From: an uncultured Solirubrobacterales bacterium
Lineage (GTDB): Bacteria; Actinomycetota; Thermoleophilia; Solirubrobacterales; Solirubrobacteraceae
Direction of reading: 5' to 3'
NCBI GenBank assembly: GCA_963795745.1
Contig: CAWCIT010000008.1
Coordinates: forward strand, 184,232-248,231
DNA: 64,000 nt
In this document: in pieces, positions 8,476 to 24,732 of the stretch
Layout: each line of letters opens with the position of its first letter
Position numbering within the stretch: position 1 is the first letter of the stretch
Program-made: the position numbers and the translations under genes
Notes under the pieces: model-generated
Seen by the model: only the letters and a program-made list of their open reading frames with translations
What the model was told of the DNA's origin: nothing
Database searches by the model: none

Positions 8476-8669
8476 GGGCTCCCAGTCAATCAGATCCGAC
8501 CCGCTGACGGTGAAAATCTGGCGGGCGCCGACGGGCCGGTGGCGGCGCCCCCGAACGCCCAGGATGCCCGCACCGCGCGTCCGCCAACCGCGTCGTCGGC
8601 CGATCCGATCCGGCCTCGCCGTCGTCCCGGCCTCCCGCTTCGCCGGCCCCCTGGCCGGCGGCCGCGCCG

Positions 8670-9275: not shown

Positions 9276-10132
9276 CAGACGCCCACCGCCGGCCACTCGT
9301 AGGCCTCTGGTCGCCGGTTGGCGAGCGACGGGAGCTGGGCGCGGATCCGCTCGAGCCGGCTCAGGTCGGCCGTCGCCCGGATCTGACCGACGGTGTCCGG
9401 GGCCTGCGCGAGGACCACGCCCCACGGATCGACGATCAGCGACCGCCCGCCCGAGCGCTGGTCGGGCGCGTGGCGTCCGATCTGGTTGGCCGCCACCACG
9501 AACGCCTGGTTCTCGATCGCGCGCGCCCGCAGCAGCGTCTCCCAGTGATCCCGCGTCGTGGCCAGCGTGAACGCCGCCGGCACGACCAGCACGCGCGCCC
9601 CGCGCAGCGCGAGGATCCGGTAGAGCTCGGGGAAGCGGACGTCGTAGCAGACGCTCAGACCCAGCTCGACGCCGCCCGCCGTCGTCGAGGTGACGATCCG
9701 GCTCCCGGGCCGCTCGTGGCGCGACTCCTCGTAGACGACCCCGTCGACCGTCACGTCGAACATGTGGATCTTCCGGTAGACCGCCCGGTCGCGCCCGTCG
9801 GGCCCGATGTGCACCGACGTGTTCGCCAGACGCGGGCCCCCCACCGCCGCCCCGCCGTCGAGCCGCTCGACGATCGAGCCGGCGACGAGGTCGATGCCCA
9901 GCTCGCGGGCCGCTTCCCGAGCCCATGTCAACGCCGGTCCGTCGAGCGGCTCGGCGCCCGCCTCGAGGGCCGGACCCGATCCGAGGAGGCTCCACTTCTC
10001 GGGGAGCAGGATGAGCTCCGCGCCCGCCGCCGCCGCCTCGCGCGTCAGCCGGTCGGCCTCGGCGAGGTTGGCCGCCCGGTCGTCCGTCGAGTTCATCTGG
10101 ACGGCCGCAATTTGGATTGACTGGTCAGTCAA
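9275..10132 (-). CDS. Carbon-nitrogen hydrolase (nitrilase superfamily, Nit/omega-amidase-like)
   Basis: IQIAAVQMNS..., LILLPEKW (catalytic Glu region), YRKIHMFD (Lys), LGLSVCYDVRFPEL (catalytic Cys). A TTG start at 10132 is preceded by GAGG 4 nt upstream. The tracked 752-aa ORF is an N-terminal shadow extension. Confidence 0.85.
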   Translation of the reverse strand: MTDQSIQIAAVQMNSTDDRAANLAEADRLTREAAAAGAELILLPEKWSLLGSGPALEAGAEPLDGPALTWAREAARELGIDLVAGSIVERLDGGAAVGGPRLANTSVHIGPDGRDRAVYRKIHMFDVTVDGVVYEESRHERPGSRIVTSTTAGGVELGLSVCYDVRFPELYRILALRGARVLVVPAAFTLATTRDHWETLLRARAIENQAFVVAANQIGRHAPDQRSGGRSLIVDPWGVVLAQAPDTVGQIRATADLSRLERIRAQLPSLANRRPEAYEWPAVGV

Positions 10133-10156
10133 GGTACCTCGGCAACAATAGCGAGG

Positions 10157-11086
10157 ATGCTCACGGACACCCCCTGGAGCCACGACGGCGCCCCGGCCAG
10201 TTGCGCCTGGTGCGAAGCACCCCTCGCCCGGCCGGCCGGCCGGCGTCGGGGTCGGACGGTGTGCGCCGCCTGCGGCGTGGCCACGACCGATCCCTGGCCG
10301 ACGCCCGCGGCCCTGGCCGACGCCTACGGCGGCGCCTACCGACCGCCTGAGGGCCGCTTCAGCGGACCGGGCGACGCGGTCCTCGAGCTGACCCGCGCCG
10401 CGCTCGCCCGCCGCCTGGACCGGATCGCCCCGCCCGGCCCCGTGCTCGACGTCGGCGCCGGGACCGGCAGCCTCGTCGCCGCGCTGCGCGATCGCGGCCG
10501 GGAGGCGATCGGCCTCGAGCGACAGGCCCGCGGCGACTGGATCCGCGACACGCCGCTGGCCGAGCTCGACGGTCCCTGGGCGGCGATCGTCTTCTGGCAC
10601 TCGCTCGAGCACCTGACCCGGCCCGGCCGCGATCTCGACCGGGCGGCCGACCTGCTCGCCCCCGGCGGCGTGCTCGTCGTGGCGGTTCCCAACGCCGCCA
10701 GCGTCCAGGCCCGCCTGTTCGGCGACCGCTGGCTCGCCCTCGACCTCCCCCGGCACCTCACCCACATCCCGGCCCGCGCCCTGACCGCCCGCCTCGAGGC
10801 GCGCGGCCTGGCCATCGAGCGCGTCAGCCACTGGCGCGGCGGCCAGGTCGTCTTCGGCTGGCTGCACGGCCTCGTCGGCCTCGCCCCCGGCCGGCCGAGC
10901 CTCTACGACGCGGTCCGCCGGCCCCCGGCCCGCTGGCAGGAGCAGGACGGCCGGCGCCGGGCCCAGATCCTCGCCGCGGCGCTCCTGCTCGGTCCGGTCG
11001 CCGGACTCGGCGCCGCGCTCGAGATCGCCCTCGGCCGCGGCGGCACCGTCTACGTCGAGACGCGCAGGCCCGTCGCCATCCCGTGA
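10157..11086 (+). CDS. Class I SAM-dependent methyltransferase with an N-terminal Cys4 zinc-ribbon-like motif
   Basis: CAWCEAPL...CAACG near the N-terminus and the SAM motif I VLDVGAGTGSLV, followed by VFWHSLEHL and GGVLVVAVPN. It is only 24 bp from the divergent nitrilase-like gene. Confidence 0.85.
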   Translation: MLTDTPWSHDGAPASCAWCEAPLARPAGRRRGRTVCAACGVATTDPWPTPAALADAYGGAYRPPEGRFSGPGDAVLELTRAALARRLDRIAPPGPVLDVGAGTGSLVAALRDRGREAIGLERQARGDWIRDTPLAELDGPWAAIVFWHSLEHLTRPGRDLDRAADLLAPGGVLVVAVPNAASVQARLFGDRWLALDLPRHLTHIPARALTARLEARGLAIERVSHWRGGQVVFGWLHGLVGLAPGRPSLYDAVRRPPARWQEQDGRRRAQILAAALLLGPVAGLGAALEIALGRGGTVYVETRRPVAIP

Positions 11087-11139
11087 AGGCATGGCAACGA
11101 CTCGCCACGGCCGGCGATCTCGCGTGATGACATCGAGAC

Positions 11140-11454
11140 TCAGCTGACTCGGAACTCCGTGGCCCGGGCGCCACCCTGGAGGCTGTAGACGGCGAGGCCC
11201 CGCCCGTCGCGGGCGATCGCCACCTGGCCGGAGCTCGCCCCGATGCCGGGGGGCGACAGCGCTCGGCTCGCTCCGATCGCTCCGGCCGGCCCGATCCGGG
11301 AGATGCGCAGGGCCGAGCGCTGGTCCGTGAAGACGACGTAGGTTCTCCCCCGGGGGTCGACGAGGACGTCCGGGGCGCGCTGCGCGTCGCGTCCACCCGG
11401 CCCGGCCACCGGGCGCGACAGCGATCCCCCGATTCGCCCCCGCGCGAGCTCCAC
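11140..11454 (-). CDS. Hypothetical protein or gene remnant
   Basis: A 104-aa ORF with beta-strand-like segments (RTYVVFTDQ, GLAVYSLQ). I recognised no family. It could be a relic. Confidence 0.2.
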   Translation of the reverse strand: MELARGRIGGSLSRPVAGPGGRDAQRAPDVLVDPRGRTYVVFTDQRSALRISRIGPAGAIGASRALSPPGIGASSGQVAIARDGRGLAVYSLQGGARATEFRVS

Positions 11455-11578
11455 CTCCTCGCCTCCCCGCTGAACGTGTCTGCCGCGCCGACGCAGGTGA
11501 TGGCGACTGCTGCCTGACCGCTCGAACCGGCACGCGCGGGGGCCCCTCGCGTACCCGGGCGGCCGCCGATCCTCCGGC

Positions 11579-12283
11579 CTACCCCCCGCTCGCGTGCTGG
11601 CGGCGCAGCTCGGCGAGGAGGAGCTTCGAGTGCATCGCCCCGATCAGCTCGCGCAGCGGCTCGGCCCCGGCGGTGATGATCTCGACCGCCCGGTCGGCGT
11701 CGACCTCCCCGGTCAGGCGGCCCAGCAGCGTGCGCACCTCCTTGGCCACCAGCGGCTCGAGGGCCTCCCGGTAGCGGAGCGTGTCGTAGACGGTGAAGCC
11801 CAGCGTCTCGTCGTAGCCGCTGGCCCGGAAGCGGCCGATCGCCTCGATCACCTTGACGTCGTCCGGGTCGTAGCCGGCCGGCGACGGCGTCAGCACGCCG
11901 AGCTCGGCCAGCCGGTCGAGGGCGGGCTGGGGCACGTCGTAGCGACGGCGGACCTCCTCGGTCGAGATCCGCCGCTGCTGCTGGGAGTGGCTGAGCGCCT
12001 TCTCGATGATCCGGTCCTCGAGCTCGAGCAGCGCCGCCAGCCGCTCCGGCTCCTCGGCCAGCATCCGCTTGATCAGCCGCAGCGGCATGAACCGCTGCTC
12101 CTGGAGGCGCTTGATCAGGCTCAGCCGCTCGACGAACTCCGGCCCGTAGTAGGCCATGTTGCGGCTCGTGCGCACCGGCTCGGGCAGGAGCCCCTCGCGC
12201 AGGTAGTGCTTGATCGTCGGCGCGCTGACCCCCGAGCGCTCGACGAGCTCCGACATCTTGAGCAGGCCGTCGACCGTGCTCAT
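11579..12283 (-). CDS. MerR family transcriptional regulator
   Basis: A 234-aa product with the N-terminal HTH LKMSELVERSGVSAPTIKHYLREGLLPEP. ATG 12283 was verified and forms an ATGA overlap with the upstream CoA-transferase stop. Confidence 0.85.
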   Translation of the reverse strand: MSTVDGLLKMSELVERSGVSAPTIKHYLREGLLPEPVRTSRNMAYYGPEFVERLSLIKRLQEQRFMPLRLIKRMLAEEPERLAALLELEDRIIEKALSHSQQQRRISTEEVRRRYDVPQPALDRLAELGVLTPSPAGYDPDDVKVIEAIGRFRASGYDETLGFTVYDTLRYREALEPLVAKEVRTLLGRLTGEVDADRAVEIITAGAEPLRELIGAMHSKLLLAELRRQHASGG

Positions 12284-13518
12284 CGCGCCCCCGCCCCCGC
12301 CCCCGTCCCCGCCCGCGCGACGGCCCCGTCGCGCTCGAGGGCCGCGATCTCGGCCGCGCCGTAGCCCGCCTCCCGCAGGACTGCCGCCGTGTGCTCGCCC
12401 GGCCCCGGCCCCGGCCGCCGCGCCGGGTCGCCGGGCGTGCGCGACAGCCGGACGGGGATCCCCAGCTGGCGGACCCCGCCGGCCACGCCCGGCTGGTCGA
12501 GCTCGACGACCATGCGCCGGCCCAGCTCGGATTCGAGGGCCTCGTCGAGCCCGAGCACCGGCTCCAGGCAGCAGTCGTGCTCGGCGCCGAACGCCTCCCA
12601 CGCGGCCCGCGTCCGCCCGGCGAAGATCGCCTCGACGGCCCGGTGGACCGCTGACCCGGGAGGCTCGAGCTGGCCGCCGATCAGGTCGTCGCGGCCCACC
12701 CCCCGGCACCACGCGGCCCAGAACTTCGGCTCGAGCGCCCCGAGCGTCACCCAGCCGTCGGCGCACCGGTACGGCCGGTAGCAGACGAGGCCGCCGCCGA
12801 GCTCGAGCCCGCCCCGCGCCGGCGCCGGCGCCGACGCCGACGCCCCGGCCAGGTAGCCGGCGGCGACCAGGGCCAGCCAGGCGAGCGCCCCGTCGGCCAT
12901 GGCCACGTCGACCAGCTGGCCCTCGCCGCTGCGCTCGCGTTCGCGCAGGGCAGCGAGGATGGCGAACGCGGCCAGCAGCGCCCCACCCCCCAGGTCGGCG
13001 ATCTGGCCGGCTGACGTGGCCGGCGGGCCGTCGGCCTCGCCGCTCAGGCCGAGCAGGCCGACCCGGCCCAGGTAGTTGATGTCGTGGCCCGCCCGGTCGC
13101 GCAGCGCCCCCTCCTGTCCGTAGCCGCTGATCGCGCAGTAGACGAGCCCCGGGTTGACCTCCCGCAGGCGCTCGTAGCCGACGCCCAGGCGGTCGAGGAC
13201 CCCCGGACGGAAGGACTCGAGCAGGACGTCGTGGGCGCCGCCCAGGCGCTCCAGCACCTCCCGGCCGCCCGCGGTCCGCAGGTCGAGGACGATCGACCGC
13301 TTGTTGCGGTTGAGCGCCAGGAAGGGCGCCGAGCCGGCCCCGGGCGCCGCGCCCGGGTAGAACGGCGGCCACGCCCGCAGGTAGTCGCCTCCGTCCGGGC
13401 CCTCGACCTTCAGCACCTCGGCTCCGAAGTCGGCCAGGAGCAGCGAGCAGAAGCCGCCCGGAAGCAGGCGCGAGAGGTCGAGCACGCGAATCCCCGCCAG
13501 CGGAAGCCCGTCGCTCAC
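12280..13518 (-). CDS. Family III CoA-transferase (CaiB/BaiF/Frc-like)
   Basis: LAGIRVLDLSRLLPGGFCSLLLADFGAEVLKVE, LNRNKRSIVLDL, VLLESFRPGVLDRLG, HDINY: the classic family III signature. GTG 13518 forms a GTGA overlap with the enoyl-CoA hydratase stop. Confidence 0.9.
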   Translation of the reverse strand: MSDGLPLAGIRVLDLSRLLPGGFCSLLLADFGAEVLKVEGPDGGDYLRAWPPFYPGAAPGAGSAPFLALNRNKRSIVLDLRTAGGREVLERLGGAHDVLLESFRPGVLDRLGVGYERLREVNPGLVYCAISGYGQEGALRDRAGHDINYLGRVGLLGLSGEADGPPATSAGQIADLGGGALLAAFAILAALRERERSGEGQLVDVAMADGALAWLALVAAGYLAGASASAPAPARGGLELGGGLVCYRPYRCADGWVTLGALEPKFWAAWCRGVGRDDLIGGQLEPPGSAVHRAVEAIFAGRTRAAWEAFGAEHDCCLEPVLGLDEALESELGRRMVVELDQPGVAGGVRQLGIPVRLSRTPGDPARRPGPGPGEHTAAVLREAGYGAAEIAALERDGAVARAGTGAGAGAR

Positions 13519-14300
13519 CGGCCGGACCACCGCGGCTCCCGGTGCCCGAAGAAGGCCTCCACCCCCTCGCGCAGGTCGTCGCTCGACATCGCGATCGCCA
13601 GCTGCGCCCGCAGGTACTCGAGCGCGTCGAGGAGCGGCATGTCCATCTGGCGGTACATCGCGTCCTTGCCCATCCGCATCGCCAGCGGCGCCGCCGCCGC
13701 CAGCCGGGTCGCCCAGCCCTCGACGGCGGCTTCGAGCTCGCCCGGCGCGACGACCCGGTTGACGATTCCGGCCTCGCTGGCCGTCTCGGCCGAGATCCGC
13801 TCCCCCAGCAGCAGCAGCTCGCTCGCCCGCTTGCGCGGGACGTTGCGGTAGAGCAGGGCCATGACCATGAACGGGAAGGCGCCGACCCCGAGCTCCGGCG
13901 TCCCGAAGCTCGCCGCCGTGCTCGCCACGACGAGGTCGCAGGCCAGGACCACGCCGACCGCGCCCCCCAGGGCCGCGCCGTCGACCGCGCAGACCGTCGG
14001 CTTCCCCAGCGTCCCGATCAGCTCGAACACGCGCACGAAGCGCCCGGCCCCGTCGTGGCGCTCGACCAGCGGCCGCTCGCCGACGAAGTCCTGGAGGTCG
14101 GCCCCGGCCGAGAAGACCTTGGGATGCCCGGAGGCGAGCACCACACAGCGGACGGCCGGGTCGGCCCGCGCCCGCTCGAGCTCGGCGCACAGCGCCTCGA
14201 GGAGCTCGCCCGACAGGGCGTTGCGCCGCGCCGGGTCGTTCAGGGTGATGCGCGCGACGCCCGCCGCCGTCACGCCGTAGAGCACCTTGGGCTCGCCCAC
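13515..14300 (-). CDS. Enoyl-CoA hydratase/isomerase (crotonase) family protein
   Basis: ITLNDPARRNALS, FSAGADL, VCAVDGAALGGAVGVVLACDL, PELGVGAFP: oxyanion-hole and crotonase motifs, 261 aa. Confidence 0.9.
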   Translation of the reverse strand: MGEPKVLYGVTAAGVARITLNDPARRNALSGELLEALCAELERARADPAVRCVVLASGHPKVFSAGADLQDFVGERPLVERHDGAGRFVRVFELIGTLGKPTVCAVDGAALGGAVGVVLACDLVVASTAASFGTPELGVGAFPFMVMALLYRNVPRKRASELLLLGERISAETASEAGIVNRVVAPGELEAAVEGWATRLAAAAPLAMRMGKDAMYRQMDMPLLDALEYLRAQLAIAMSSDDLREGVEAFFGHREPRWSGR

Positions 14301-14320
14301 GATCCGCCCATCCTACCCAA

Positions 14321-14345
14321 AAGTGAGAAGTACTACTGTTTACTT
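14321..14345. promoter_or_regulatory. Candidate operator: an imperfect palindrome in an AT-richer patch of the divergent acyl-CoA promoter region
   Basis: aagtgagaAGTACTactgtttactt: the arms AAGTGAGAAGT and AAGTAAACAGT (reverse complement) match at about 8 of 11 positions around an AGTACT core. It sits in the 113-bp gap between 13515..14300(-) and 14414..15601(+). Confidence 0.25.
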
Positions 14346-14413
14346 TCCAGTCGGCCCGCGGTACGGTCTGTCGAGCGTTCTCGCCGCCCCATGAGGAAGG
14401 AGCACCGTCGTCG

Positions 14414-15601
14414 ATGGCCATCGCCGAGCAGAGCCTCAAGCCCGACTTCACGGCGCCCCGGCGGCACTTCGTCTTCACCGACGAGCACGACCAGCTGCGC
14501 GAGTCGATCCGTCGCTTCGTGACCCGCGAGCTGCGGCCCCACGCCGAGGAGTGGGAGGAGACGACCTTCCCCGACTGGGTCTTTCGCCGCATGGGCGAGC
14601 TCGGCTTCCTCGGCCTGTCGATGCCCGAGGCCTACGGCGGCCAGGGCGGCGACTACTACTGCAACCTCGTCCTCGCCGAGGAGATGGCCGGGGCCGACTC
14701 GGCCGGCACGGCGATGGGCGTGGCCGTGCACACCGACATGGCGATGCCGCCGCTCGAGCGCTTCGCCACCGAGACCCAGAAGCAGGAATGGCTCGTCCCG
14801 GCCATCCGCGGCGAGAAGATCCTCTGCCTGGGCATCACCGAGCCCGACGCCGGCTCCGACGTCGCCGCGATCAAGACGCGCGCCGTGGCCGACGCCGGCG
14901 ACTACGTCATCAACGGCTCGAAGACCTACATCACCAACGGCCACCGGGCCGACGTGATCATCCTCGTGACCAAGACCGACCCCGCCGCCGGCCACGGCGG
15001 CCTGACGCTGTTCCTCGTGCCGCTCGACGCCCCCGGCGTGACCCGCGAGAAGCGGCTGGTCAAGCTCGGCATGCACGCCTCCGACACGGCGCTCCTGAGC
15101 TTCCAGGACGTCCGCGTCCCCGCGAGCGCCGTCCTCGGCGAGGTCGGTCGCGGCTTCCAGGAGATCATGTGGGAGCTCCAGGGCGAGCGGCTGATCTCGG
15201 CCGCCGGCTGCGTCGCCGCCGCCGAGCGCTGCTTCGAGCGCACGCTCGCCTTCGCCAAGGAGCGCCAGGCGTTCGGTCGGGAGATCGGCCACCACCAGGC
15301 CATCCGCCACCGGTTCGCCGAGATGGCGACCAAGATCGAGACGGCCCGTCAGGTCGTCTACACGACGGCCTGGCGCTTCGAGCGCGGCGACTATCCGGTC
15401 CGGGAGATCTCGATCGCCAAGCTCCACGCCGCCCGGACGGCGGTGGAGGTGGCGGACGACTGCATCCAGATCCACGGCGGTGCCGGCTACATGCGCGAGT
15501 ACGGGATCGAGCGCGTCTGGCGCGACCTGCGCCTGCACCGGATCGGCGCCGGGACCGACGAGATCATGCTCGAGGTCATCGGCCGCAGCTATGGCCTCTA
15601 G
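14414..15601 (+). CDS. Acyl-CoA dehydrogenase
   Basis: A 395-aa product with GITEPDAGSD, YITNG and a C-terminal QIHGGAGYMREYGIERVWRD...IGAGTDEI: canonical ACAD motifs. Confidence 0.95.
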   Translation: MAIAEQSLKPDFTAPRRHFVFTDEHDQLRESIRRFVTRELRPHAEEWEETTFPDWVFRRMGELGFLGLSMPEAYGGQGGDYYCNLVLAEEMAGADSAGTAMGVAVHTDMAMPPLERFATETQKQEWLVPAIRGEKILCLGITEPDAGSDVAAIKTRAVADAGDYVINGSKTYITNGHRADVIILVTKTDPAAGHGGLTLFLVPLDAPGVTREKRLVKLGMHASDTALLSFQDVRVPASAVLGEVGRGFQEIMWELQGERLISAAGCVAAAERCFERTLAFAKERQAFGREIGHHQAIRHRFAEMATKIETARQVVYTTAWRFERGDYPVREISIAKLHAARTAVEVADDCIQIHGGAGYMREYGIERVWRDLRLHRIGAGTDEIMLEVIGRSYGL

Positions 15602-15632
15602 ACGGGGCGCCAATCGACGCAAGGGAGACCGA

Positions 15633-16460
15633 ATGGGAGTTCTCGACGACAAGGTGGCCATCGTCACCGGCTCCGCCCGCGGCATCGGCCTCGCCACCGC
15701 GGAGCTCCTGGCCGAGCACGGAGCCAAGGTCCTGGTCAACGACCTCGACGGCGACGCCGCCCGCGCGGCGGCCGACCAGATCGACGGCGACACGGCGGTC
15801 TTCGCCGGTGACCTCACCCGGCCCGGCGTTCCCGACGACCTCGTGGCCGCGACGATCGACGCCTTTGGCCGGATCGACATCATCGTCAACAACGCCGGCT
15901 ACACCCTCGACAAGCCGATCCACACGATGAGCGACGACTGGTTCCAGCGGATGCTCGACATCCACGTCGTCGCGCCGTTCCGCGTGATCCGCGCCGCCGC
16001 CCCCCACCTGCGCGAGCCGGCGAAGGTCGAGCGGGCCGAGGGGCGGGAGGTGTTCCGCAAGATCGTCAACGTCTCATCGGTCTCCGGCACGATGGGCAAC
16101 GCCGGACAGGCCAACTATGCGGCCGGCAAGTCCGCAGTCGTCGGACTGACCAAGACCCTGGCCAAGGAGTGGGGCCAGTTCAAGATCAACGTCAACGCCG
16201 TCGCCTTCGGCTACATCGAGACCCGGCTGACCGCCGCCAAGGACGAGTCGAACACGATGGAGATCGACGGCCAGCAGGTGCAGCTCGGGATCCCCGACCA
16301 GCTGCGCGGCATGGTCTCGATGCTGATCCCCCTCGGCCGTCCCGGCACCCCGCAGGAGGCCGCCGGCGGCGTGTTCTTCCTCTGCTCGCCCTGGTCCAAC
16401 TACGTCCACGGTCAGGTGCTCAACGTGACCGGCGGCCAGTTCACCGGGATGACGACCTGA
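15633..16460 (+). CDS. Short-chain dehydrogenase/reductase (FabG-like 3-oxoacyl reductase)
   Basis: VAIVTGSARGIG (TGxxxGxG), NNAG, S...YAAGK catalytic triad. ATG 15633 is preceded by AAGGGAGA. The tracked ORF from 15480 overlaps the ACAD 3' end. Confidence 0.9.
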   Translation: MGVLDDKVAIVTGSARGIGLATAELLAEHGAKVLVNDLDGDAARAAADQIDGDTAVFAGDLTRPGVPDDLVAATIDAFGRIDIIVNNAGYTLDKPIHTMSDDWFQRMLDIHVVAPFRVIRAAAPHLREPAKVERAEGREVFRKIVNVSSVSGTMGNAGQANYAAGKSAVVGLTKTLAKEWGQFKINVNAVAFGYIETRLTAAKDESNTMEIDGQQVQLGIPDQLRGMVSMLIPLGRPGTPQEAAGGVFFLCSPWSNYVHGQVLNVTGGQFTGMTT

Positions 16461-16466
16461 CCGCGC

Positions 16467-18026
16467 TCAGGCGAGCGGCACGGCCAGGAGCGTGGCCTGC
16501 GGCGCGGCGCTGCCCTGCGGCGTCAGCTCGGTGACGTAGGCACCGGTGGGGCTCAGCGCCGTGGTCCACAGGCTGACGTGCGTCCGCGGCGCCCGCGGAG
16601 GCGGGCAGCGACTCGGCTCGCTGCCCTGGCTCGTGTGCCCCGGCTCGTGCCCCGCGTCGCGCGAGGAGACGCCGCCGATGCGCAGCAGCACGCGCGCCCC
16701 GATGGCCGTCTGCGCCGACCCGAGGACCAAGCGCTGGTCGCAGTAGGTCGCCCGCTCGTAGAGGAGCCGGTTGCCGAGCAGCGCCGGGTTCAGGAGCTGA
16801 CTCACACCCGACTGGCGCAGCACCTGCCGCCGACCGCTCTGCAGGTCGATCTCGACGATCCGGCTCCCCCGGGGCCCGTTGATCGCGACCACCACCCGGC
16901 TGCCGTCGAGCCCGGGCCGGCCGAGGTCGACCGCCGACGGCTCGGCCGCGACCACGGTCATCGGCGCCAGGGCCGGCAACGGGAAGGCGAACAGCACCTG
17001 GCGCGCGGTCGCGTCCGTCGCCCGGACCACGAGCCAGCCGGCCGAGACCGCGAGCTGCTCGACCGTTCCCGGGACGGTGACCCGGCCGATCGTCGCGCCG
17101 GTGCCGGTGCCGGCGGCGGCGCCGGCGCCGGCGCCGGCGGTGATCACCGTCACCTGCGAGCCGGCGAGAAGCGCCAGGTTCCCGCCGCCGAGCGCCGGGT
17201 CGGCTCCGCTCAGGGCCCGCGGCGGCGCCCCCGACGCGTCGAGCGCCATTCCGGCGCCGCTGGCCGGCGCCTCCCAGGCGAGCAGGTCGCCGCTCACCGT
17301 CGGATCGGTCGCCCCGACGGCCACCGGCGTCACCGCCGCCACGGCGCTCCCCGCCGCGGGCCCGATGGCCAGCGCCGCGGCGCACAGCAGCAGCAGCGCG
17401 CCGTCGAGGCGACGCAGCCACGCCAGCACCACCGGCCGCTCGGCCATCAGCTCGGCGTAGCGGACCGCCCGCACGCCGTCGATCCACGGCGCGAGCGCGA
17501 CCACCGGCAGCGCCCGCCCGGCGCCGAAGGCCACGCCGATCGCGAGGCCGGCGCCCGGGTCGCCGAGCGCCACGCACAGGCCGGCCAGAACCCACACGGC
17601 CATGGTCAGGACGAAGGTCGTGAAGCCCAGCCCCAGCAGCACGCCGTAGAGGCCGCCGGCCACCGGGAGCGGCATCACCCGCCGCCAGTGCTCCGGCACC
17701 TGGCGGCGCACCTGGGGCACGACCCGCACCCCCCGAGCCTCGCCGACCGCCGCCGCCGCGGCGACCGCCACCGCCGCTGCCGTCGCCGCCGGCCGCGCGT
17801 CCCCGCCCCCCAGCGCCCGGCCGAGCAGGGACAGGACGGTGAAGGTCGCCGCGCCCCCGGCCACCGCGCCGGCGGCAAACGTGACGCACGCGGCGAACGT
17901 CGTGCGCCGTCCCCCGGTGTGGCCGGTCGGACCGAGCGTGCTCAGCATCGAGAACCCGCACGGCGACCAGGTGCCGGTCACGCCGGCGGCGAACGCGGTG
18001 GTGGCCAGGATGACGGTGACTAGCAC
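16467..18026 (-). CDS. DsbD_2/CcdA-type (MauF-like) polytopic membrane protein fused to an extracytoplasmic beta-propeller-like domain
   Basis: The N-terminal half has multiple TM helices with a WSPCGF motif in the first helix, as in CcdA/DsbD_2-type thiol-disulfide transporters. The C-terminal ~250 aa has a recurring strand motif (VSGDLLAW, SAGWLVVR, DGSRVVVA, GNRLLYE), as in TolB-like propellers. GTG 18026 overlaps the upstream TAG by 7 nt. The first 50 codons of the tracked ORF are a run-on into the upstream gene. Confidence 0.6.
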   Translation of the reverse strand: MLVTVILATTAFAAGVTGTWSPCGFSMLSTLGPTGHTGGRRTTFAACVTFAAGAVAGGAATFTVLSLLGRALGGGDARPAATAAAVAVAAAAAVGEARGVRVVPQVRRQVPEHWRRVMPLPVAGGLYGVLLGLGFTTFVLTMAVWVLAGLCVALGDPGAGLAIGVAFGAGRALPVVALAPWIDGVRAVRYAELMAERPVVLAWLRRLDGALLLLCAAALAIGPAAGSAVAAVTPVAVGATDPTVSGDLLAWEAPASGAGMALDASGAPPRALSGADPALGGGNLALLAGSQVTVITAGAGAGAAAGTGTGATIGRVTVPGTVEQLAVSAGWLVVRATDATARQVLFAFPLPALAPMTVVAAEPSAVDLGRPGLDGSRVVVAINGPRGSRIVEIDLQSGRRQVLRQSGVSQLLNPALLGNRLLYERATYCDQRLVLGSAQTAIGARVLLRIGGVSSRDAGHEPGHTSQGSEPSRCPPPRAPRTHVSLWTTALSPTGAYVTELTPQGSAAPQATLLAVPLA

Positions 18027-18589
18027 TTGATGCCCGTGTCGTAGTAGTAGGTGCAGAAGACCGCCCGGCCGGCGTAGCAGTAGCCGGTCAGTGCGGCATC
18101 GCCGTTGATGCGCACGGTCGAGTACGAGCAGCAGTCGAGCAGCCGCCGTACGTTGCCGCCGCAGCACCGATACCACGAGCCGTCTACGTAGGTCTTGAAG
18201 TGGAAGCGCTCCGGGATCGCGTCCAGGCAGACCCGGCTGCGCGGCGCCGGCGGCAGCGGCCGGCCGACCGGGTCGACCAGGACCTGTCCGCCCGCGTCGA
18301 CCGCGTGGCCGGCGGCGTTGACCGGCCGGCCGAGGTCGTCGACCGGATGGCCGTCGCGCGCCCGCAGCGGCCGGCCGCGGGCGTCGACCCGGGGCAGCCC
18401 CGTCGGGTGCGGGCAGCTGGCCGTCGTGTAGATGTGGCCACAGAAGTGGAAGGCCTCGGCCGCCGGCGGCCGGGCGAGCCGGCTGCCGCCGGCGGCGGCG
18501 ACGACAGCCGCCCCGACCCGCGCGATGAAGCCCCGCCGCGACGTCGTCCGCGCGACGGCCAGGCCGAGCCCGGGGTCAGCCTTCGGCAT
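18020..18589 (-). CDS. Tat-exported Cys-rich protein, methylamine-dehydrogenase-light-chain (MauA)-like
   Basis: Twin-arginine signal TSRRGFIARVGAAVVAAAGG. The mature part has 10 Cys in MauA-like spacing (FCGH..SCPHP; SWYRCCGG....LDCC; GYCYAG..VFCTYYYD..KC). Compare MADH-L ...AYRDCCG...CPC...IWCFG...YHCT, quoted from memory. A Gly/Arg/Pro/Asp-rich insert with repeated D..GRP[VL] motifs separates the Cys clusters. Confidence 0.6.
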   Translation of the reverse strand: MPKADPGLGLAVARTTSRRGFIARVGAAVVAAAGGSRLARPPAAEAFHFCGHIYTTASCPHPTGLPRVDARGRPLRARDGHPVDDLGRPVNAAGHAVDAGGQVLVDPVGRPLPPAPRSRVCLDAIPERFHFKTYVDGSWYRCCGGNVRRLLDCCSYSTVRINGDAALTGYCYAGRAVFCTYYYDTGIKC

Positions 18590-19466
18590 GGCTCAGCGCC
18601 GCTCGTCGCTCGGCGGTGGCCAGCATGCCCTCGAGTTGGCCCCCGCTGTTGAACGCCCCCTTGGCCAGGACGGTGCCGGCCCGGTCGAGGACCAGCGCGT
18701 ACGGGCTTCCCGGAACTTCGAGCGCCCGCCAGACGTCGTCGTCGGCGTGCTCGTCGAAGCTCAGCATCGACACGAACGGGTCGCGCCCCAGCCAGTCGAG
18801 GGCCGGCTCCAGCGCCCGGCAGAGGGGGCAGCCAGCGGAGGAGAAGACGGCCAGCGCGAGCTTGACGTCGCCGTCGAGGGCGAAGCGTCCGATCAGCGGG
18901 ACCCGGCGACCGAGCGGCGGCCCCTCGTCGGCCAGCTCGAGCGCCAGCTGCGGTCCGAGACGCAGGCGCAGCTCGCCGATCTCCCGGGCGAGCGCGACGG
19001 TGACCACGCCGACGGCGGCCACACCGACCAGGGCGAGGACCAGGCCGGCGGCCAGCCACCCCACGGTCGAGACCGGGGCCCGCGTCACCGACGGCAGCCC
19101 GGCGTACGCGGCCGCCAGGGCGAGATCGCGGGCCACCGCCCGGCGGCTGACCGTCGCCCGCGCGCCGAAGCACGCGCACGGCGCGCCCGTCCCCCCGCGG
19201 CCGATGACCACGGCCAGCGCGAGCCCGAAGGCCGCCATCGCCGCGGCGGCGGCGTAGGCGCCCGCGCGGCTGCCGGCGGCCACGCCCGCGGCCAGCCCCA
19301 GCTCGGCGGCGACGAGCGCCGCCAGCGCCGCCGCCTGCGCGCGCCGCGGCCGGATCCCGAACGTGGCCAGGGCGGACGCGCTGCGCCCCGGGCTGGTCAG
19401 CTTGGCGGCGGCGCTCGCCGCCAGCACGCCGGCGAGCAGCCAGGCCGCAGCCGCATGCGGGCTCAC
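18576..19466 (-). CDS. MauE/DoxX-type membrane protein fused to a thioredoxin-like (MauD/TlpA-like, CPLC) domain
   Basis: The N-terminal TM domain has the MauE hallmark GAPCACFG. The C-terminal domain has LAVFSSAGCPLCRALEP (CxxC) and a thioredoxin-fold-like end, YALVLDRAGTVLAKG. GTG 19466 was chosen because the giant upstream gene stops at 19546. The tracked start at 19628 would overlap it. Confidence 0.7.
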   Translation of the reverse strand: MSPHAAAAWLLAGVLAASAAAKLTSPGRSASALATFGIRPRRAQAAALAALVAAELGLAAGVAAGSRAGAYAAAAAMAAFGLALAVVIGRGGTGAPCACFGARATVSRRAVARDLALAAAYAGLPSVTRAPVSTVGWLAAGLVLALVGVAAVGVVTVALAREIGELRLRLGPQLALELADEGPPLGRRVPLIGRFALDGDVKLALAVFSSAGCPLCRALEPALDWLGRDPFVSMLSFDEHADDDVWRALEVPGSPYALVLDRAGTVLAKGAFNSGGQLEGMLATAERRAALSHAEG

Positions 19467-19545
19467 GCCCCGAGACCTCCCGCACCACCGCCGGCCATCG
19501 GCCCGAGGATAAGGCATACCCCCGGCTTCGCCGGCGGCGATCGGC

Positions 19546-22500
19546 TCAGGGAGCCTTGGCCAGGTAGCTGCGCCCCGCCCGCAGCACGATCTGGCGCCGG
19601 GTGCGGAGGTTGGTGACCGCGACCACACCGCGCTGCACGGCCGTCAGCGTCCCGTCGCAGCGATCCGTCGTCGTCCACATCGTCCCGCGCACCGTCGCCG
19701 CGCTGTAGCGCCCGCGGGTGCGGAACTTCCCCTTGACGTTCGCCCGCAGCAGGGCCAGGACCGTCTTGGGCAGCGCCTTGGCGGCCGCCGTCTGCGCCTG
19801 GCCGACCTGGCCAACCTTGCCGACCTTGGGGACCTTGCCCGCCGCACACCTGCGCGCCGCGGTGCTCCGGAGCACGAGCCTCAGCTCGCTCAGCCCGCGC
19901 TCCTTGCGGTTCTGGAGGAGCTTGAACAGGCCGCCGCCGAAGTTGCCCGCCTGCGTCTGACCCTTGGTCGCGGTCGCCGTGGTCAGCCGGGCCACCCCGC
20001 TCGTCGTGTCGAAGATCGTGCCCACCGGCAACTGGCGCGCCTCGGTCAGCGGCACGAAGCCCACGCCCTTGGCCGCGCTGGTGTGCGCCGAGGCGACGTG
20101 GCCGGTCCCCGGGACGAGCACGTAGACGACCCCGCTGACCGTCGCCGCGTCGACCGACTTGCCGAGCACCGGCGGACCCGGCGGCGGATCGACCGCCGTC
20201 TGGAACGCGGCGTCCCCGCCGCTCGCCACGCCGAGCGCGTTGCTGGCCACGGCCTTCACGTGGTAGGCGCTGTTGGGCAGGAGCCGGGCCACCACGGCCT
20301 TGACCACGTGGTCGGCGAAGTCCGACCCGACGACCTGCTCCGGCGTCGTCGCCGCGTAGGAGACCGCCGCCGCGGTCGCCGGCGCCCCGCTGGCCACGGT
20401 GTACTCGAAGTGCATCGTCGTCGGCGCTCCGCCCGGGTTGATCACGGCCGAGAACTCGACGCTCGTGCTGTTGATGACCTTCGGCGGCCCGGTCACCACC
20501 GTCGCCGCGCGCGGTGTCCCGGTGGGACCGCTGGGACCACTCGGCCCGGCGGGACCGGGGGGACCGGGCGAGCCGCCGACGTAGGTGAACTGGTCGCCCG
20601 CGCCGGCCGGGCTCGTGCCCGACGGTGTGGTCACGGTCACGTCGACGGTGCCCGTGCCGGCCGGCGCGGTGGCCGTGATCTGGGTCGGCCCGTCGACGGT
20701 GAACTGCGCCGGCGCGGCGCCGAAACGGACGAAGCTCGCGCCGGTCAGCCCGGTCCCGGTGATCGTGACCACCGTCCCCCCGGCCGCCGGCCCCGACGTC
20801 GGGCTGATCGCGGTGACCGCCGGCGCCGGCAGCGGGGTCCCGTAGGCGTAGTGGTCGGCGGCGCCCTTCGTGCTCGTCCCGGAGGGCGTCGTCACGGTCA
20901 CGTCGACGGTTCCGGTCCCGGGGGGCGCGACCGTGGTCAGCTGGGTTCCGTCCGCGCTCACGCCGACCACGGGTGCCGGCGCCGAGCCGAAATGCACCGA
21001 GGTCGCGCCGGTGAAGCCGGTGCCGCTGATCACCACGCCGTTGCCGCCGGCCGCCGGGCCCGACGCCGGCGTGACCGCGGTCACCAGCGGTGGCCCGGTG
21101 GGGGGCGCGACGTAGGCGTAGGCGTCGGGCGCCGTGGTCGGGCTCGTCCCGGCCGGGGTCGTCACCCGGACGTCGACGGTGCCGCTGCCGGCCGGCGCGG
21201 TCGCCGTGATCTGGCTTGGGCTCGTGACCGTGAACGCGGTCGCCGGCGTTCCCCCGAAGCTGACGCCGGTCGCTCCGGCGAAGCCCGTCCCGGTGATCGT
21301 CACCGTCGTGCCCCCGGCCTGCGGCCCGGAGATCGGGCTCAGTCCGGTGACCGCCGGCGCCGGCGCGCTGACCACGACCGCCTCGGTCGGGTCCGCGCAG
21401 GCCGTGGTCGAGGTCGGGTAGTTGCCGTCGCCGCTGTAGGTCGCGACGACCCGGTAGGTGCCGGCCAGCGTCGGCGTGAAGCTGTCCGACGCCGCCGCGG
21501 TGCCGCCCCGGGTCAGTGCGTTGGTCGAGGTGAACACGGGCGCCGCGCTGCACGTGGCGTCGGCCGGCCCGAAGACCGCGAACGTCACCGTGCCCGTCGG
21601 TGCCGCCGCGCCCGCCGGCGCCGGCCCGAGCGTGGCGGCATCGTTGAACGACGCGCCGAGCGCGATCGCCTCCGGCCCGGCGTCGGTGGTCAGCGCGAGC
21701 GCCGTCGCCCGGCCGACCGCGGCCGCCTCGGCCGGATCGGCGCACGCCGATGTCGAGGGGGTGTAGTCGGCGTCGCCGGCGTAGCTCGCAATCACCCGGT
21801 AGGTCCCGGCGCTCGACGGCGTGAAGCGGCCCGAGGTCGCCGAGTTCCCGTCGGCGCCGAGCGGGTTGATCGACGTGAACACCGGCGTGGCCGCGCACGT
21901 CGGATCGCCCGGGCCGTAGACCTGGAAGGTCACGCTCCCGCTCGGCGCCGCCGCCCCGGCCGGCACCGGGCCGAGGCTGGCGGTGTCGGCGAACGAGCCG
22001 CCGAGGGCGAGCGAGGCCGGGGCCACCGCGGTCGCCAGGACCAGCGGCGCCCGACCGACGGTGACCGTCTCGCCCGGATCGCCGCACGAGGACGCGGACG
22101 GCAGGTAGTTGGCGTCGCCGCCGTAGGCGGCGACCACCCGATAGGCGCCGGTCCGCGCCGGCGTGAAGCTGCTCGACGTCGCCGACCCGCCGCTGAGCGC
22201 CGCGGTCGCCGTCAAGGCCGGCGCCGACGCGCAGGCCGGGTCGGAAGGGCCGTAGACGTTGAACGTCACCGTCCCGGTCGGCGCCGGCGCCCCGCCCGCC
22301 GGCGGTGCGACCGTGGCCGTGTCGTGGAAGGCGCCGCCCAGGGCGATCGTCGCCGGCGCGACCGCCGTGGCCACCGGCAGGCTCGCCCGGCCGACCACCT
22401 CGGCCTCGGCCGGATCCGCGCATGTCGACGCGGACGCGAGGTAGCTCGCATCGCCGGAGTAGCTCGCGATCACCCGGTAGGTCCCGGGCGCGGTCGGCGA

Positions 22501-24732
22501 GAAGTCGGAGGAGACCGCGGTCGTCCCGGAGGGGTCGACCGCATTGGTCGAGGTGAACAGCGGCGTCGCGGCGCACGTCGGGTCGGCCGGGGCGTAGACG
22601 TTGAAGGTCACGGTGCCCGTCGGCGGCCCCCCGCCCGCGGGCGGGCTGAGCGTCGCGGTGTCGTGGAACGCTCCGCCCACGGCGATCGGAGTCGGCGCGA
22701 CCTGGGTGGCGATGGCGAGCCCCGTCCGGGCGACGGTCACGCGTTCGCTCGGGTCCCCGCACGACGAGGTGGCCGAGTTGTAGTTCGCGTCGCCGCTATA
22801 GGTCGCGACCACCACGTAGGTGCCCGCCGCCGCCGCGGTGAAGGCGCCGGAGGTCACCGACGGGCTGTCGACGAGCGGGACGGTGGAGCTGAAGACCGGG
22901 GACGAGGCGCACTGGGAGTCGTTCAGGTAGACGTCGAAGGTGACCGTCCCGGTCGGTGGCGGCGCGCCCTCGAACGGCGAGCCCACGGTGGCGCGGTCCT
23001 GGAAGCTGCCGCCGACGGCGATCGCGGCCGGCGTGGCCAGCGTGGTGAGCGTCGGCTGCGCCGGATTGACCGTGACCGACTCGGCCGGGTCGCTGCACAC
23101 CGACGCCGAGGGCTGGTAGTTCGCATCGCCGCTGTAGGTCGCGATCACCTGGTAGGTCCCGGCGGCGGTCGGGAAGAAGTTCGTCGACGCCGCTGAGGTT
23201 CCCGCGGCGTTGACCGGATTGGTCGAGGTCAGGACCGGGCTCGCGGTGCATGCCGGGTCACCCGGGCCGTACACGTCGAAGGTCACCGACCCGGTCGGCG
23301 CGGCTGCCCCGGCGACGGCGGGTCCGAGCGTGGCCGTGTCCTGGAAGTTGGCGCCGAGCGTGATCGAGGCTGGCGCGACCTGCGTGGCGATGGCCAGCGG
23401 CGCCGGGCTGACCGTGACCGCCTCGGCCGGGTCGGCGCAGAGCGAGGCCGACGCCGTGTAGTTGGCGTCGCCGCTGTAGCTGGCCACCACCCGATAGGTG
23501 CCGGCGCCCGTCGGCGTGAAGTCGCTCGACGCGGCCATCGTCCCCGACGCGGTGAGCGGGTCGGTCGAGGTGAAGACGGGCGCCGCCGCGCACGACGGGT
23601 CCGCCGGGCCGTAGACGTTGAAGGTGACCGTCCCGGTCGGCGCCGGCACCCCGGCCGGGGCGGGACCGAGCGTCGCGTCGTCGTGGAAGGTGGAGCCCAG
23701 GCCGATCGTCTCCGGCGTCACGTCGGTCGTCACGGCCACCGTCGCCGGGCCGACGCTCACCGACTCCCCCGGGTCGCCGCACGTCGTCGAGGTCGGGCCG
23801 TAGTTGGCGTCGCCGCTGTAGGTGGCGATCACGTCGTAGCCGCCCTGGGTGGTCGGGGTGAACGGGTCGGAGACCGCCGTGGTCCCGGCGGCGTCGACCG
23901 GGTTGGTCGAGCTGAAGACCGAGGAGGTGTCGCAGGAGCTGCCGGTCGGATAGACGACGAACGTGACCGTCCCGGTCGGCGTCGCCGCCCCCGCCGTCGG
24001 GCTCAGGGTCGCCGTGTCCTGGAACGGCGAGCCGACGCCGATCGCCGGCGGGGCGACCTGCGTGGCGATCGGGAGGGCGCCCGGCGAGACCGTGACCTGG
24101 TTGGACGAGCTGCCGCTGCCGGTGACCTGGTCGGTCGCGGTGCCTTGGGCGAAGCCGGCCTGTTCGGTCTGGATGCCGCTCGCGTCGGGGTTCGCGTCGC
24201 CGGCCGGCATCCGGACCACGTCGACGGTGAAGTCGATCACGCACGTCGTGTTCCCGGAGCCGCTGGCCGGACCGAGGACGACGGGGGCGGACGGCGTGAA
24301 CTGAACCTTGCCCTGCAAGGCGTCGACCACCGCGATCGTGAACGTCGTCCCGGCGCAGGCCGTGCCCGCCTCACCGACGCCGGTCGCGCTGAGGCGCAGC
24401 ACCCCGGGGTCCGTCCGCCCCGGCGGGCAGTCGGCGCCGGAGGGGAAGGTGGTGCAACTCGGGACGAGGGTGATCGTGCCGAGCGTGACCGGCAGGGTGT
24501 CCTCGGGCGGGCTCGACTGGTTGGAGATCGTCAGCGTCTCGAGAACCGCGGACTGCCCGACCCTGAGGGAATTGCCACTGGGGATGCTCGGAGCGGCGCT
24601 CAACCCGACGGTGGCCCAGGCCGGGCCGGCGGCCACGCCGAGGAACGCGCCGAGAACCACCAGCGCCAGTACGACCGCGCGCCAGCGGAGAAGCCCCACC
24701 CCGTCGCCGCCCCCCTCCCGCATCGCCCGCAT
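19546..24732 (-). CDS. Giant secreted surface/adhesin-like protein (1728 aa): signal peptide, Cys-containing N-domain, 8 Ig-like (Big_3-type) repeats, 3 IPT/TIG domains, a short collagen-like GXY run, an FN3-like domain and a conserved C-terminal module
   Basis: Signal peptide: RWRAVVLALVVLGAFLGVAAGPAWA. There are eight ~113-aa repeats, each ending YSGDANY..S..C.DP.E.V.V. Three IPT/TIG units have the form SGP.AGGT.VTITGTGF.GA..V.FG...TVDVTVTTP.GTS. The collagen-like run is GPPGPAGPSGPSGPTG. GAGGGA lies 7 nt upstream of ATG 24732. Confidence 0.85.
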   Translation of the reverse strand: MRAMREGGGDGVGLLRWRAVVLALVVLGAFLGVAAGPAWATVGLSAAPSIPSGNSLRVGQSAVLETLTISNQSSPPEDTLPVTLGTITLVPSCTTFPSGADCPPGRTDPGVLRLSATGVGEAGTACAGTTFTIAVVDALQGKVQFTPSAPVVLGPASGSGNTTCVIDFTVDVVRMPAGDANPDASGIQTEQAGFAQGTATDQVTGSGSSSNQVTVSPGALPIATQVAPPAIGVGSPFQDTATLSPTAGAATPTGTVTFVVYPTGSSCDTSSVFSSTNPVDAAGTTAVSDPFTPTTQGGYDVIATYSGDANYGPTSTTCGDPGESVSVGPATVAVTTDVTPETIGLGSTFHDDATLGPAPAGVPAPTGTVTFNVYGPADPSCAAAPVFTSTDPLTASGTMAASSDFTPTGAGTYRVVASYSGDANYTASASLCADPAEAVTVSPAPLAIATQVAPASITLGANFQDTATLGPAVAGAAAPTGSVTFDVYGPGDPACTASPVLTSTNPVNAAGTSAASTNFFPTAAGTYQVIATYSGDANYQPSASVCSDPAESVTVNPAQPTLTTLATPAAIAVGGSFQDRATVGSPFEGAPPPTGTVTFDVYLNDSQCASSPVFSSTVPLVDSPSVTSGAFTAAAAGTYVVVATYSGDANYNSATSSCGDPSERVTVARTGLAIATQVAPTPIAVGGAFHDTATLSPPAGGGPPTGTVTFNVYAPADPTCAATPLFTSTNAVDPSGTTAVSSDFSPTAPGTYRVIASYSGDASYLASASTCADPAEAEVVGRASLPVATAVAPATIALGGAFHDTATVAPPAGGAPAPTGTVTFNVYGPSDPACASAPALTATAALSGGSATSSSFTPARTGAYRVVAAYGGDANYLPSASSCGDPGETVTVGRAPLVLATAVAPASLALGGSFADTASLGPVPAGAAAPSGSVTFQVYGPGDPTCAATPVFTSINPLGADGNSATSGRFTPSSAGTYRVIASYAGDADYTPSTSACADPAEAAAVGRATALALTTDAGPEAIALGASFNDAATLGPAPAGAAAPTGTVTFAVFGPADATCSAAPVFTSTNALTRGGTAAASDSFTPTLAGTYRVVATYSGDGNYPTSTTACADPTEAVVVSAPAPAVTGLSPISGPQAGGTTVTITGTGFAGATGVSFGGTPATAFTVTSPSQITATAPAGSGTVDVRVTTPAGTSPTTAPDAYAYVAPPTGPPLVTAVTPASGPAAGGNGVVISGTGFTGATSVHFGSAPAPVVGVSADGTQLTTVAPPGTGTVDVTVTTPSGTSTKGAADHYAYGTPLPAPAVTAISPTSGPAAGGTVVTITGTGLTGASFVRFGAAPAQFTVDGPTQITATAPAGTGTVDVTVTTPSGTSPAGAGDQFTYVGGSPGPPGPAGPSGPSGPTGTPRAATVVTGPPKVINSTSVEFSAVINPGGAPTTMHFEYTVASGAPATAAAVSYAATTPEQVVGSDFADHVVKAVVARLLPNSAYHVKAVASNALGVASGGDAAFQTAVDPPPGPPVLGKSVDAATVSGVVYVLVPGTGHVASAHTSAAKGVGFVPLTEARQLPVGTIFDTTSGVARLTTATATKGQTQAGNFGGGLFKLLQNRKERGLSELRLVLRSTAARRCAAGKVPKVGKVGQVGQAQTAAAKALPKTVLALLRANVKGKFRTRGRYSAATVRGTMWTTTDRCDGTLTAVQRGVVAVTNLRTRRQIVLRAGRSYLAKAP
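21367..24081 (-). repeat. Array of 8 diverged ~340-bp coding repeats (Ig-like domain repeats) within the giant protein gene
   Basis: A periodic protein motif, PTGTVTF.VYGP.DP.C....VFTSTN...GT.....F.PT..GTY.V.A.YSGDANY, recurs about every 113 aa between residues ~218 and ~1122. Confidence 0.8.

Follow-up and report, generated by a model that had tools for sequence, protein, structure and literature searches.

A ten-cysteine protein with a twin-arginine signal, encoded between a MauE-MauD fusion and a MauF-propeller protein in Thermoleophilia

Organization of the cassette

In a 64,000-nt stretch of DNA from an uncultured Solirubrobacterales bacterium (contig CAWCIT010000008.1 of assembly GCA_963795745.1), hereafter referred to as the window, three overlapping genes are located on the minus strand in the order MauE-MauD fusion, ten-Cys protein and MauF-propeller protein. 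The central gene, which is the main subject of this work, encodes a small cysteine-rich protein that a first-pass annotation had described as MauA-like, i.e., as resembling the light chain of methylamine dehydrogenase (MADH). To our knowledge, MauE, MauD and MauF have for about thirty years been described solely as MADH helpers, and no function has been assigned to MauF, even in the canonical mau system. The start of the ten-Cys gene overlaps the stop of the MauE-MauD gene by 14 nt, while its stop overlaps the GTG start of the third gene by 7 nt; similar overlaps were found in two other loci, L002 and L003. The trio was present in the same order in all 80 loci examined, in which the ten-Cys protein was the best conserved of the three products (59-84% identity, as compared with 43-78% for the MauE-MauD fusion and 36-85% for the MauF-propeller protein). 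The features of the cassette, in window coordinates, are as follows:

18576 to 19628, minus strand: MauE-MauD fusion, longest open reading frame (ORF), assigned by PF07291 and by BLASTP to Paracoccus MauE and MauD
18020 to 18589, minus strand: ten-Cys, one-Trp protein of 189 aa, exported by the twin-arginine translocation (Tat) pathway, from the ORF and its translation
18452 to 18589, minus strand: Tat signal peptide, residues 1-46, TIGR01409 above cut-off, cleavage site inferred
18401 to 18451, minus strand: N-terminal motif F-H-F-C50-G-H52-I-Y-T-T-x-S-C59-P-H61-P-T, from alignment conservation
18242 to 18400, minus strand: approximately six tandem repeats of 7-8 residues, P-[VL]-D-x-x-G-R, residues 64-116, from autocorrelation and the AlphaFold2 (AF2) model
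18023 to 18241, minus strand: C-terminal eight-Cys domain, residues 117-189, from alignments and the AF2 model
18173 to 18175, minus strand: codon of W139, within the family motif DG[SA]W[YHF]RCC, kept in 197 of 197 distinct mature regions
16467 to 18026, minus strand: third gene, 519 aa, GTG start, ORF with an identical 519-aa product in the protein collection
17352 to 18026, minus strand: MauF-like polytopic membrane domain, residues 1-225 of the third gene product, from BLASTP and the AF2 model
16467 to 17339, minus strand: extracytoplasmic beta-propeller, approximately residues 230-519 of the third gene product, from the AF2 model and Foldseek

The MauE-MauD fusion consists of a four-helix MauE membrane domain with a CAC-FG motif, a transmembrane (TM) linker and a thioredoxin-like MauD domain with a CPLC motif. 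Since its relatives are 293-303 aa long, its start is probably downstream of that of the longest ORF, at ATG 19517 or GTG 19466. The MauE domain matched PF07291 with an E-value of 1.8e-15 (57.8 bits against a cut-off of 27 bits) and was aligned by BLASTP with Paracoccus MauE at E 1e-8, with CAC opposite CGC (CACFG with CGCF). The MauD domain was aligned with Paracoccus MauD at E 1e-13, including the TM anchor, the CPLC/CPVC motif and the PY loop; its match to TIGR02661 (E 7.8e-7, 28.7 bits) is far under the equivalog cut-off of 188.6. Based on these matches, we classify the C-terminal part of the fusion as a MauD-like domain, not as an equivalog.

The third gene was compared with MauF references taken as the gene upstream of mauB in canonical mau clusters, which were fetched around true MauA genes. 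BLASTP aligned residues 2-221 of its product with Paracoccus MauF (L004) at E 4e-15, with 36% identity over 235 aa, and also matched a Methylobacterium-type MauF (L006) at E 4e-11 over approximately 230 aa. In these alignments, the motifs TWSPCG[FY]S and PQxRxQVP are common to the third gene product and canonical MauF, and the MauF-like domain presents an invariant W-S-P-C-G motif together with a P-Q-x-R-R-Q-x-P-E loop. No curated model for MauF was found in Pfam or NCBIfam. In the AF2 model, the MauF-like domain is all-helical, with a predicted local distance difference test (pLDDT) score of approximately 90, and the propeller domain is all-beta, with approximately 23 strands and a mean pLDDT of 88. 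Foldseek analysis of the propeller domain retrieved the propellers of TolB, YncE and acylaminoacyl-peptidase at E-values of approximately 1e-6, and the MADH heavy chain was not among the 50 matches listed.

The third gene of a relative is considerably longer. On a 264-kb Joint Genome Institute (JGI) metagenome contig (L002, positions 8570-11659), it encodes 1,029 aa, in which the MauF-like domain and a first propeller are followed by approximately 500 residues with PD40/Tricorn propeller matches; therefore, the extracytoplasmic part is modular. Additionally, the propeller domain has two Cys residues kept in the consensus (TYCxQRL and EPSRCP), which may form a disulfide of their own, and the loop between them (approximately residues 452-484) was modelled without secondary structure and at lower confidence.

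The ten-Cys protein and its family

The leader of the ten-Cys protein includes the twin-arginine signal TSRRGFIARVG, which was recognized by TIGR01409 with 21.9 bits against a cut-off of 16.7 bits, and cleavage is likely to occur after the AEA sequence, at residue 46. The single Trp described in the first-pass annotation was confirmed, given that W139, within GSWYRCCGG, is the only Trp of the whole protein. The ten Cys residues are C50, C59, C121, C142, C143, C153, C154, C171, C179 and C189. The reported Cys pair FCGH (C50) and SCPHP (C59) was likewise found, together with the motifs DARGRPL (residues 69-75), DDLGRPV (84-90) and DPVGRPL (106-112).

Based on the family alignment, residues C50, G51, H52, T55, T56, C59, P60 and P62 of the N-terminal motif are invariant, and H48 and H61 are present in at least 90% of the sequences. 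This Cys/His segment could form a disulfide loop or bind a metal. The AF2 model of the ten-Cys protein is confident for residues 65-189 only (pLDDT of approximately 90), with values below 50 across the N-terminal motif. In the C-terminal domain, all eight Cys residues (C121, C142-C143, C153-C154, C171, C179 and C189) are invariant, and the model predicts a helix and a three-stranded sheet with pLDDT values of 85-93.

Between these two regions, the profile autocorrelation of residues 64-116 showed peaks at lags 7-8 and 14-15 and no others, which therefore corresponds to approximately six P-[VL]-D-x-x-G-R units. In the AF2 model, each repeat forms a short strand (strands at residues 67, 74, 82, 89, 96, 103 and 111; pLDDT 86-92). 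The first-pass annotation had described this segment as a D-x-x-GRP[VL] insert of approximately 70 aa reminiscent of YD-type repeats. The repeat itself is real; its length is smaller, with 61 aa between C59 and C121 and approximately 53 aa for the repeat. It is also not an insertion, being a constant and conserved element of the family, in which the mature length is 143-144 aa in 192 of the 197 distinct mature regions. As for the YD resemblance, it holds as a likeness of motif and not as an identity; the period of 7-8 residues, as compared with approximately 20 residues for YD, and the absence of a Pfam match to the RHS/YD repeat (PF05593) in the ten-Cys protein ruled out a YD/Rhs repeat.

Positions 66-117 of the family profile also matched 13-17 times in giant unrelated proteins (P0155, P0192 and P0252), one of which is a eukaryotic I/LWEQ (talin/Sla2-like) protein made of D-E-x-G-R-L-I-D heptads. 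A heptad of the type G-R-[LP]-[VI]-D therefore recurs as a short structural repeat and does not signal homology.

A search of 5.8 billion proteins identified 2,252 homologues of the ten-Cys protein at E<=1e-3. The best 120 of these are 60-89% identical to it, are approximately 190 aa long, have no Pfam domains and are called only 'hypothetical protein'. In a scan that considered one genome per species, relatives were present in at least 509 genomes; the 80 loci listed all come from Thermoleophilia (Solirubrobacterales, Gaiellales, Thermoleophilaceae and Conexibacter), mostly with one ten-Cys locus per genome. Members of Thermoleophilia abound in soil, and most of what is known of them comes from metagenomes. 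Exactly ten Cys residues were counted in 195 of the 197 distinct mature regions, and W139, conserved in all of them, is the sole Trp in 149; where a second Trp was found, it was located five residues upstream of W139, at a variable H/W/Y/Q/S/R site. The many relatives with 60-89% identity and with the Cys residues and W139 kept indicate, therefore, a true gene and not a decayed copy. The scenario in which relatives would retain both Trp residues of the tryptophan tryptophylquinone (TTQ) cofactor and the window copy would be degenerate was thus excluded by this family-wide conservation.

In two metagenome-assembled genomes (MAGs), the cassette was found on two separate contigs, namely, in JBPCNA01 (L008 and L009, with 83-84% identity to the window protein) and in CAWHXK01 (L060 and L068, with 63% identity). 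Such pairs could reflect a paralogous second copy, a mixture of strains or redundancy among the contigs.

Comparison with MauA and other quinoproteins

For the comparison with MauA, we assembled 120 true MauA proteins, all with PF02975, of which 25 were aligned; the Paracoccus light-chain sequence was verified against PDB 2BBK chain L. In the 25 aligned proteins, both TTQ Trp residues (W57 and W108 in Paracoccus) and all 12 Cys residues are invariant. The statement that the ten-Cys protein is not a standard MauA was borne out, as neither PF02975 nor TIGR02659 was matched. The Pfam search of the ten-Cys protein returned no family at E<=1 and hence none for the QHNDH gamma subunit family, and TIGR02659 scored 11.2 bits against a cut-off of 196.85 bits, on residues 11-33 of the signal peptide only.

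When the full-length families were compared by hhalign, one significant match was obtained, which was restricted to the leader (family columns 13-46 with MauA columns 30-63; probability 95.7%, E 9.5e-9). With the leaders removed, the best alignment covered 17 columns at a probability of 1.4%. Reciprocal hidden Markov model (HMM) searches between the ten-Cys and MauA families gave at most 8.6 bits, with nothing above noise. A weak patch of 6-9 bits recurred, in which [IV]DG[SA]WYRCCGG is paired with MauA IDGxxCxCCGG; this alignment places W139 opposite MauA residues 35-36, neither of which is a TTQ Trp. In a single pairwise BLASTP comparison, 2BBK chain L was matched at E 0.011, and the alignment was interrupted at W139 by a gap of 5 residues. 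In the search of all PDB sequences with the family profile, no chain of MADH, aromatic amine dehydrogenase (AADH) or QHNDH was retrieved at E<=10, and the best Foldseek match of the AF2 model in the PDB had an E-value of 1.2, with no light chain among the 50 matches listed. The pairing of W139 as the quinone Trp with F178 at the position of the partner Trp was reproduced by no alignment method. Direct homology of the mature part to MauA was thus supported by none of BLASTP, hhalign, reciprocal HMM searches or Foldseek, and the membership of the mature part in the MauA family, implied by the label MauA-like, is not supported.

The MauA leader is unusually long and conserved, and the leader likeness extends over A-x-x-T-S-R-R-x-F-L-A-R-[LV]-G and an upstream E/L, somewhat beyond the bare Tat motif. 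An HMM of the MauA leader scored the family leaders with up to 32.8 bits in the ORFs of the loci and with 25-29 bits in the alignments shown; the control of specificity is weak, as it included just two further Tat-like ORFs from the loci. This likeness may point to an element by which the Mau helpers recognize both leaders, or may reflect no more than the Tat consensus. What ties the ten-Cys protein to MauA is its gene context, a similar precursor size and the leader.

The genome of the window is 3.58 Mb in size and 93.3% complete, and no match above cut-off was found in it for PF02975 (MauA), PF03150 (MauG) or PF06433 (MauB); these three proteins are likely absent from it. The claim that a canonical TTQ cannot be formed holds, because only one Trp is conserved in the family and no MauG was found. 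Regarding the cysteine tryptophylquinone (CTQ) of QHNDH, neither the radical-SAM protein QhpD nor QhpG was conserved beside the trio in the 80 loci.

The closest known system is the mauFBEDACJGMN cluster. As in its Paracoccus (L004) and Methylobacterium-type (L006) versions, homologues of MauF, MauE and MauD surround a small cysteine-rich gene. Two fusions set the cassette apart from these clusters, MauE being joined to MauD and MauF to a generic TolB-like propeller. Genes for the heavy chain, amicyanin, MauG, MauJ and the ferredoxin-like MauM/N are missing here, and the host is a Gram-positive member of Thermoleophilia, not a proteobacterial methylotroph. None of the catalytic or electron-transfer genes of the cluster is present, and the client comes from a different protein family.

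At the protein level, the ten-Cys protein and the MauA/AauA light chains (PF02975, TIGR02659; 2BBK chain L) are both small, cysteine-rich precursors (approximately 190 aa and, for MauA, 175-200 aa) with long Tat-type leaders that align with each other. In both cases, the gene directly follows mauE and mauD, the operon includes a mauF homologue, and a beta-propeller partner is encoded alongside. In contrast, the mature parts have no significant similarity in sequence, profile or fold; the ten-Cys protein has 10 Cys residues with other spacing and one conserved Trp, whereas MauA has 12 and two, respectively, and it contains the 53-aa heptad-repeat segment. Additionally, unlike in the MauA/AauA systems, the genome has no match for MauG, MauB, MauC or MauJ.

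The single Trp next to Cys is also a characteristic of the QHNDH gamma subunit (QhpC, with CTQ and thioether cross-links) and of the CTQ oxidases LodA and GoxA. QHNDH further resembles the cassette in its small, heavily cross-linked subunit (the cross-link being hypothetical in the ten-Cys protein) and in its propeller-containing partner. Nevertheless, no sequence similarity to QhpC, LodA or GoxA was found, and no gene for QhpD, QhpG or the flavoprotein LodB is linked to the cassette.

Proposed role of the cassette

Our preferred reading, which we hold to be probable but by no means secure, is that the ten-Cys protein is not a MADH light chain but a dedicated client, rich in disulfides and located outside the cytoplasm, of a maturation module of the Mau type that acts by thiol-redox chemistry. 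We favour the role of module client because the order of the trio is kept in 80 of 80 loci, the genes overlap, the protein has a Tat signal and the ten Cys residues are kept. MauE, MauD and MauF occur here in a compact set of constant order together with another, equally cysteine-rich protein, the presumed client.

Experiments have established MauE as a DsbB-like protein that generates disulfides and takes the place of DsbB in E. coli, with a CXC-F-G motif as its experimentally defined active site; a fusion to a thioredoxin-fold domain is present in approximately 8% of MauE proteins (bioRxiv 10.64898/2026.03.05.709764). The fusion in the window shares with these DsbB-like MauE proteins the CXC-F-G motif, a fused CxxC thioredoxin-like domain and its occurrence in an organism without MauA. 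Unlike them, the oxidase is coupled translationally here to one particular ten-Cys protein and a MauF homologue, in a cassette of invariant composition, which points to a dedicated and not a generalist role.

In the mechanism that we propose, the ten-Cys protein would be exported via Tat, and the MauD-like domain, through its CPLC motif, would oxidise the ten invariant Cys residues on the outer face of the membrane. The fused MauE domain (CAC-FG) would then re-oxidise the MauD domain and transfer the electrons to the quinone pool, while the MauF-like domain, with its one invariant Cys (WSPCG), and the propeller would assist or hold the client. The light chain of MADH sits on a propeller heavy chain, and by analogy the propeller of the third gene probably holds the ten-Cys protein as that heavy chain holds MauA. 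The expected product is a very rigid, disulfide-locked extracytoplasmic protein of 143 aa, in which a Cys/His loop at the N-terminus would be followed by six short repeats arranged as a ladder and by a beta domain with eight Cys residues. We infer the formation of disulfides by the cassette, the docking on the propeller and the final function of the client; the electron flow and the docking, in particular, are derived from the MauE preprint cited above and from the MADH analogy.

Several considerations weigh against this proposal. MauE-type oxidases can be generalists, so adjacency alone is no proof of a dedicated client. The Tat pathway often serves proteins that acquire a cofactor in the cytoplasm, and the H-x-C-x-H...C-x-H motif and the invariant Trp close to the Cys-Cys pair leave room for more than plain disulfides. 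Furthermore, for a secreted protein with a structural role alone, 60-89% identity between orders is an unusually high value.

Less likely than a dedicated client, though the likeliest of the alternatives, is that the ten-Cys protein truly descends from MauA but has diverged extremely, losing TTQ and acquiring the repeat, in which case MauA-like would be correct as a statement of ancestry. The position directly after MauD, the close precursor lengths, the leader similarity beyond the bare Tat motif in the hhalign comparison and the weak Trp-Cys-Cys patch described above are all consistent with such a descent. Nevertheless, the hhalign probability of 1.4% for the mature part, the failure of either HMM to reach the other family above noise and the absence of a significant MADH or AADH light chain in the Foldseek analysis, in which the best match of any kind had an E-value of 1.2, argue against it, as do the differences in the number and spacing of Cys residues (10 versus 12) and the position of W139 on neither TTQ Trp in the only, weak alignment. 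The control for the leader similarity, moreover, covered two other Tat-like ORFs.

A new quinoprotein-type or otherwise cross-linked cofactor seems unlikely. W139 would in this case be modified and linked to a Cys (C142, C143 or one near it in the fold), with the propeller fused to MauF as the large subunit. W139 is conserved in all 197 relatives, three residues before an invariant Cys-Cys pair, and is surrounded by the invariant residues D136, R141, D152 and Y170; the very high conservation of the family and the layout of small subunit, propeller and MauE/D/F, which mirrors the MADH cluster, would fit as well. Against this idea, no known Trp-oxidising maturase is linked to the cassette: MauG has no match in the genome, and the conserved surroundings of the cassette in the 80 loci include neither a radical-SAM nor a flavoprotein gene. 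The cassette also contains no gene for an electron acceptor such as amicyanin or a cytochrome, and no Pfam family at E<=1 or PDB quinoprotein chain at E<=10 was reached. The stricter version, in which W139 would become a new Cys-Trp-type redox cofactor without MauG, either by the MauE-MauD/MauF-propeller machinery or autocatalytically, we regard as slightly more doubtful still. If it were true, the cassette would be a self-contained, membrane-anchored quinoprotein, with its substrate unassigned, that is widespread in soil Thermoleophilia.

We give an equally low credence to a metal- or iron-sulfur redox protein, in which H48-x-C50-x-H52...C59-x-H61 would form a centre loaded before Tat export and the other eight Cys residues would form four disulfides. 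The invariance of C50, H52 and C59 and the presence of H48 and H61 in at least 90% of the family agree with such a site, and the Cys/His segment is the sole mature part that AF2 cannot place, as expected for a cofactor-dependent loop. The Tat signal points in the same direction, given that Tat export is typical of cofactor-bearing proteins. Nevertheless, MauA also bears a Tat-type leader although it acquires no cofactor in the cytoplasm, no curated metal-site family in Pfam or NCBIfam is matched by the motif, the divergent member P0125 has other residues in place of H48 and H61, and C50-C59 could be a plain disulfide loop.

Finally, a secreted cysteine-rich toxin, bacteriocin or product like a peptide that is ribosomally synthesized and modified post-translationally (RiPP), with MauE/D as tailoring enzymes, has a precedent in the decRiPPter study, in which mauE/mauD were found beside cysteine-rich precursors (RiPP candidates) in Streptomyces genomes without other mau genes (PMC7794033), but is very improbable in view of the fixed length of the 143-aa mature protein, its 60-89% identity in at least 509 species genomes, mostly with one locus per genome among those listed, and the lack of any immunity, protease or exporter gene conserved nearby in the 80 loci.

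The cassette offers a second, independent system for working out the roles of MauF and MauD. It also draws attention to an exported protein with very strong conservation, which may be important in the envelope or in redox processes. The lesson for annotation is that the ten-Cys family should not carry the label 'methylamine dehydrogenase light chain'.

Neighbouring genes

No paper describing the ten-Cys family or the cassette was found in the literature. Beyond the trio, no flanking gene was shared by more than 29 of the 80 loci, and the recurrent families look like housekeeping genes; no linked cofactor maturase, radical-SAM and flavoprotein genes included, was conserved among them.

Directly upstream of the cassette, at positions 19546-24732 on the minus strand, a secreted protein of 1,728 aa is encoded, in which eight Ig-like domains (Big_3_5) and three of the IPT/TIG type were recognized. 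A link between the cassette and this Ig-like surface protein was discarded, as its gene is not among the flanking-gene clusters shared across the 80 loci. Downstream, positions 13515-16460 are occupied by a divergent fatty-acid-type cluster, unrelated to the cassette, that consists of an enoyl-CoA hydratase gene on the minus strand and the genes of an acyl-CoA dehydrogenase and a short-chain dehydrogenase/reductase (SDR) on the plus strand.

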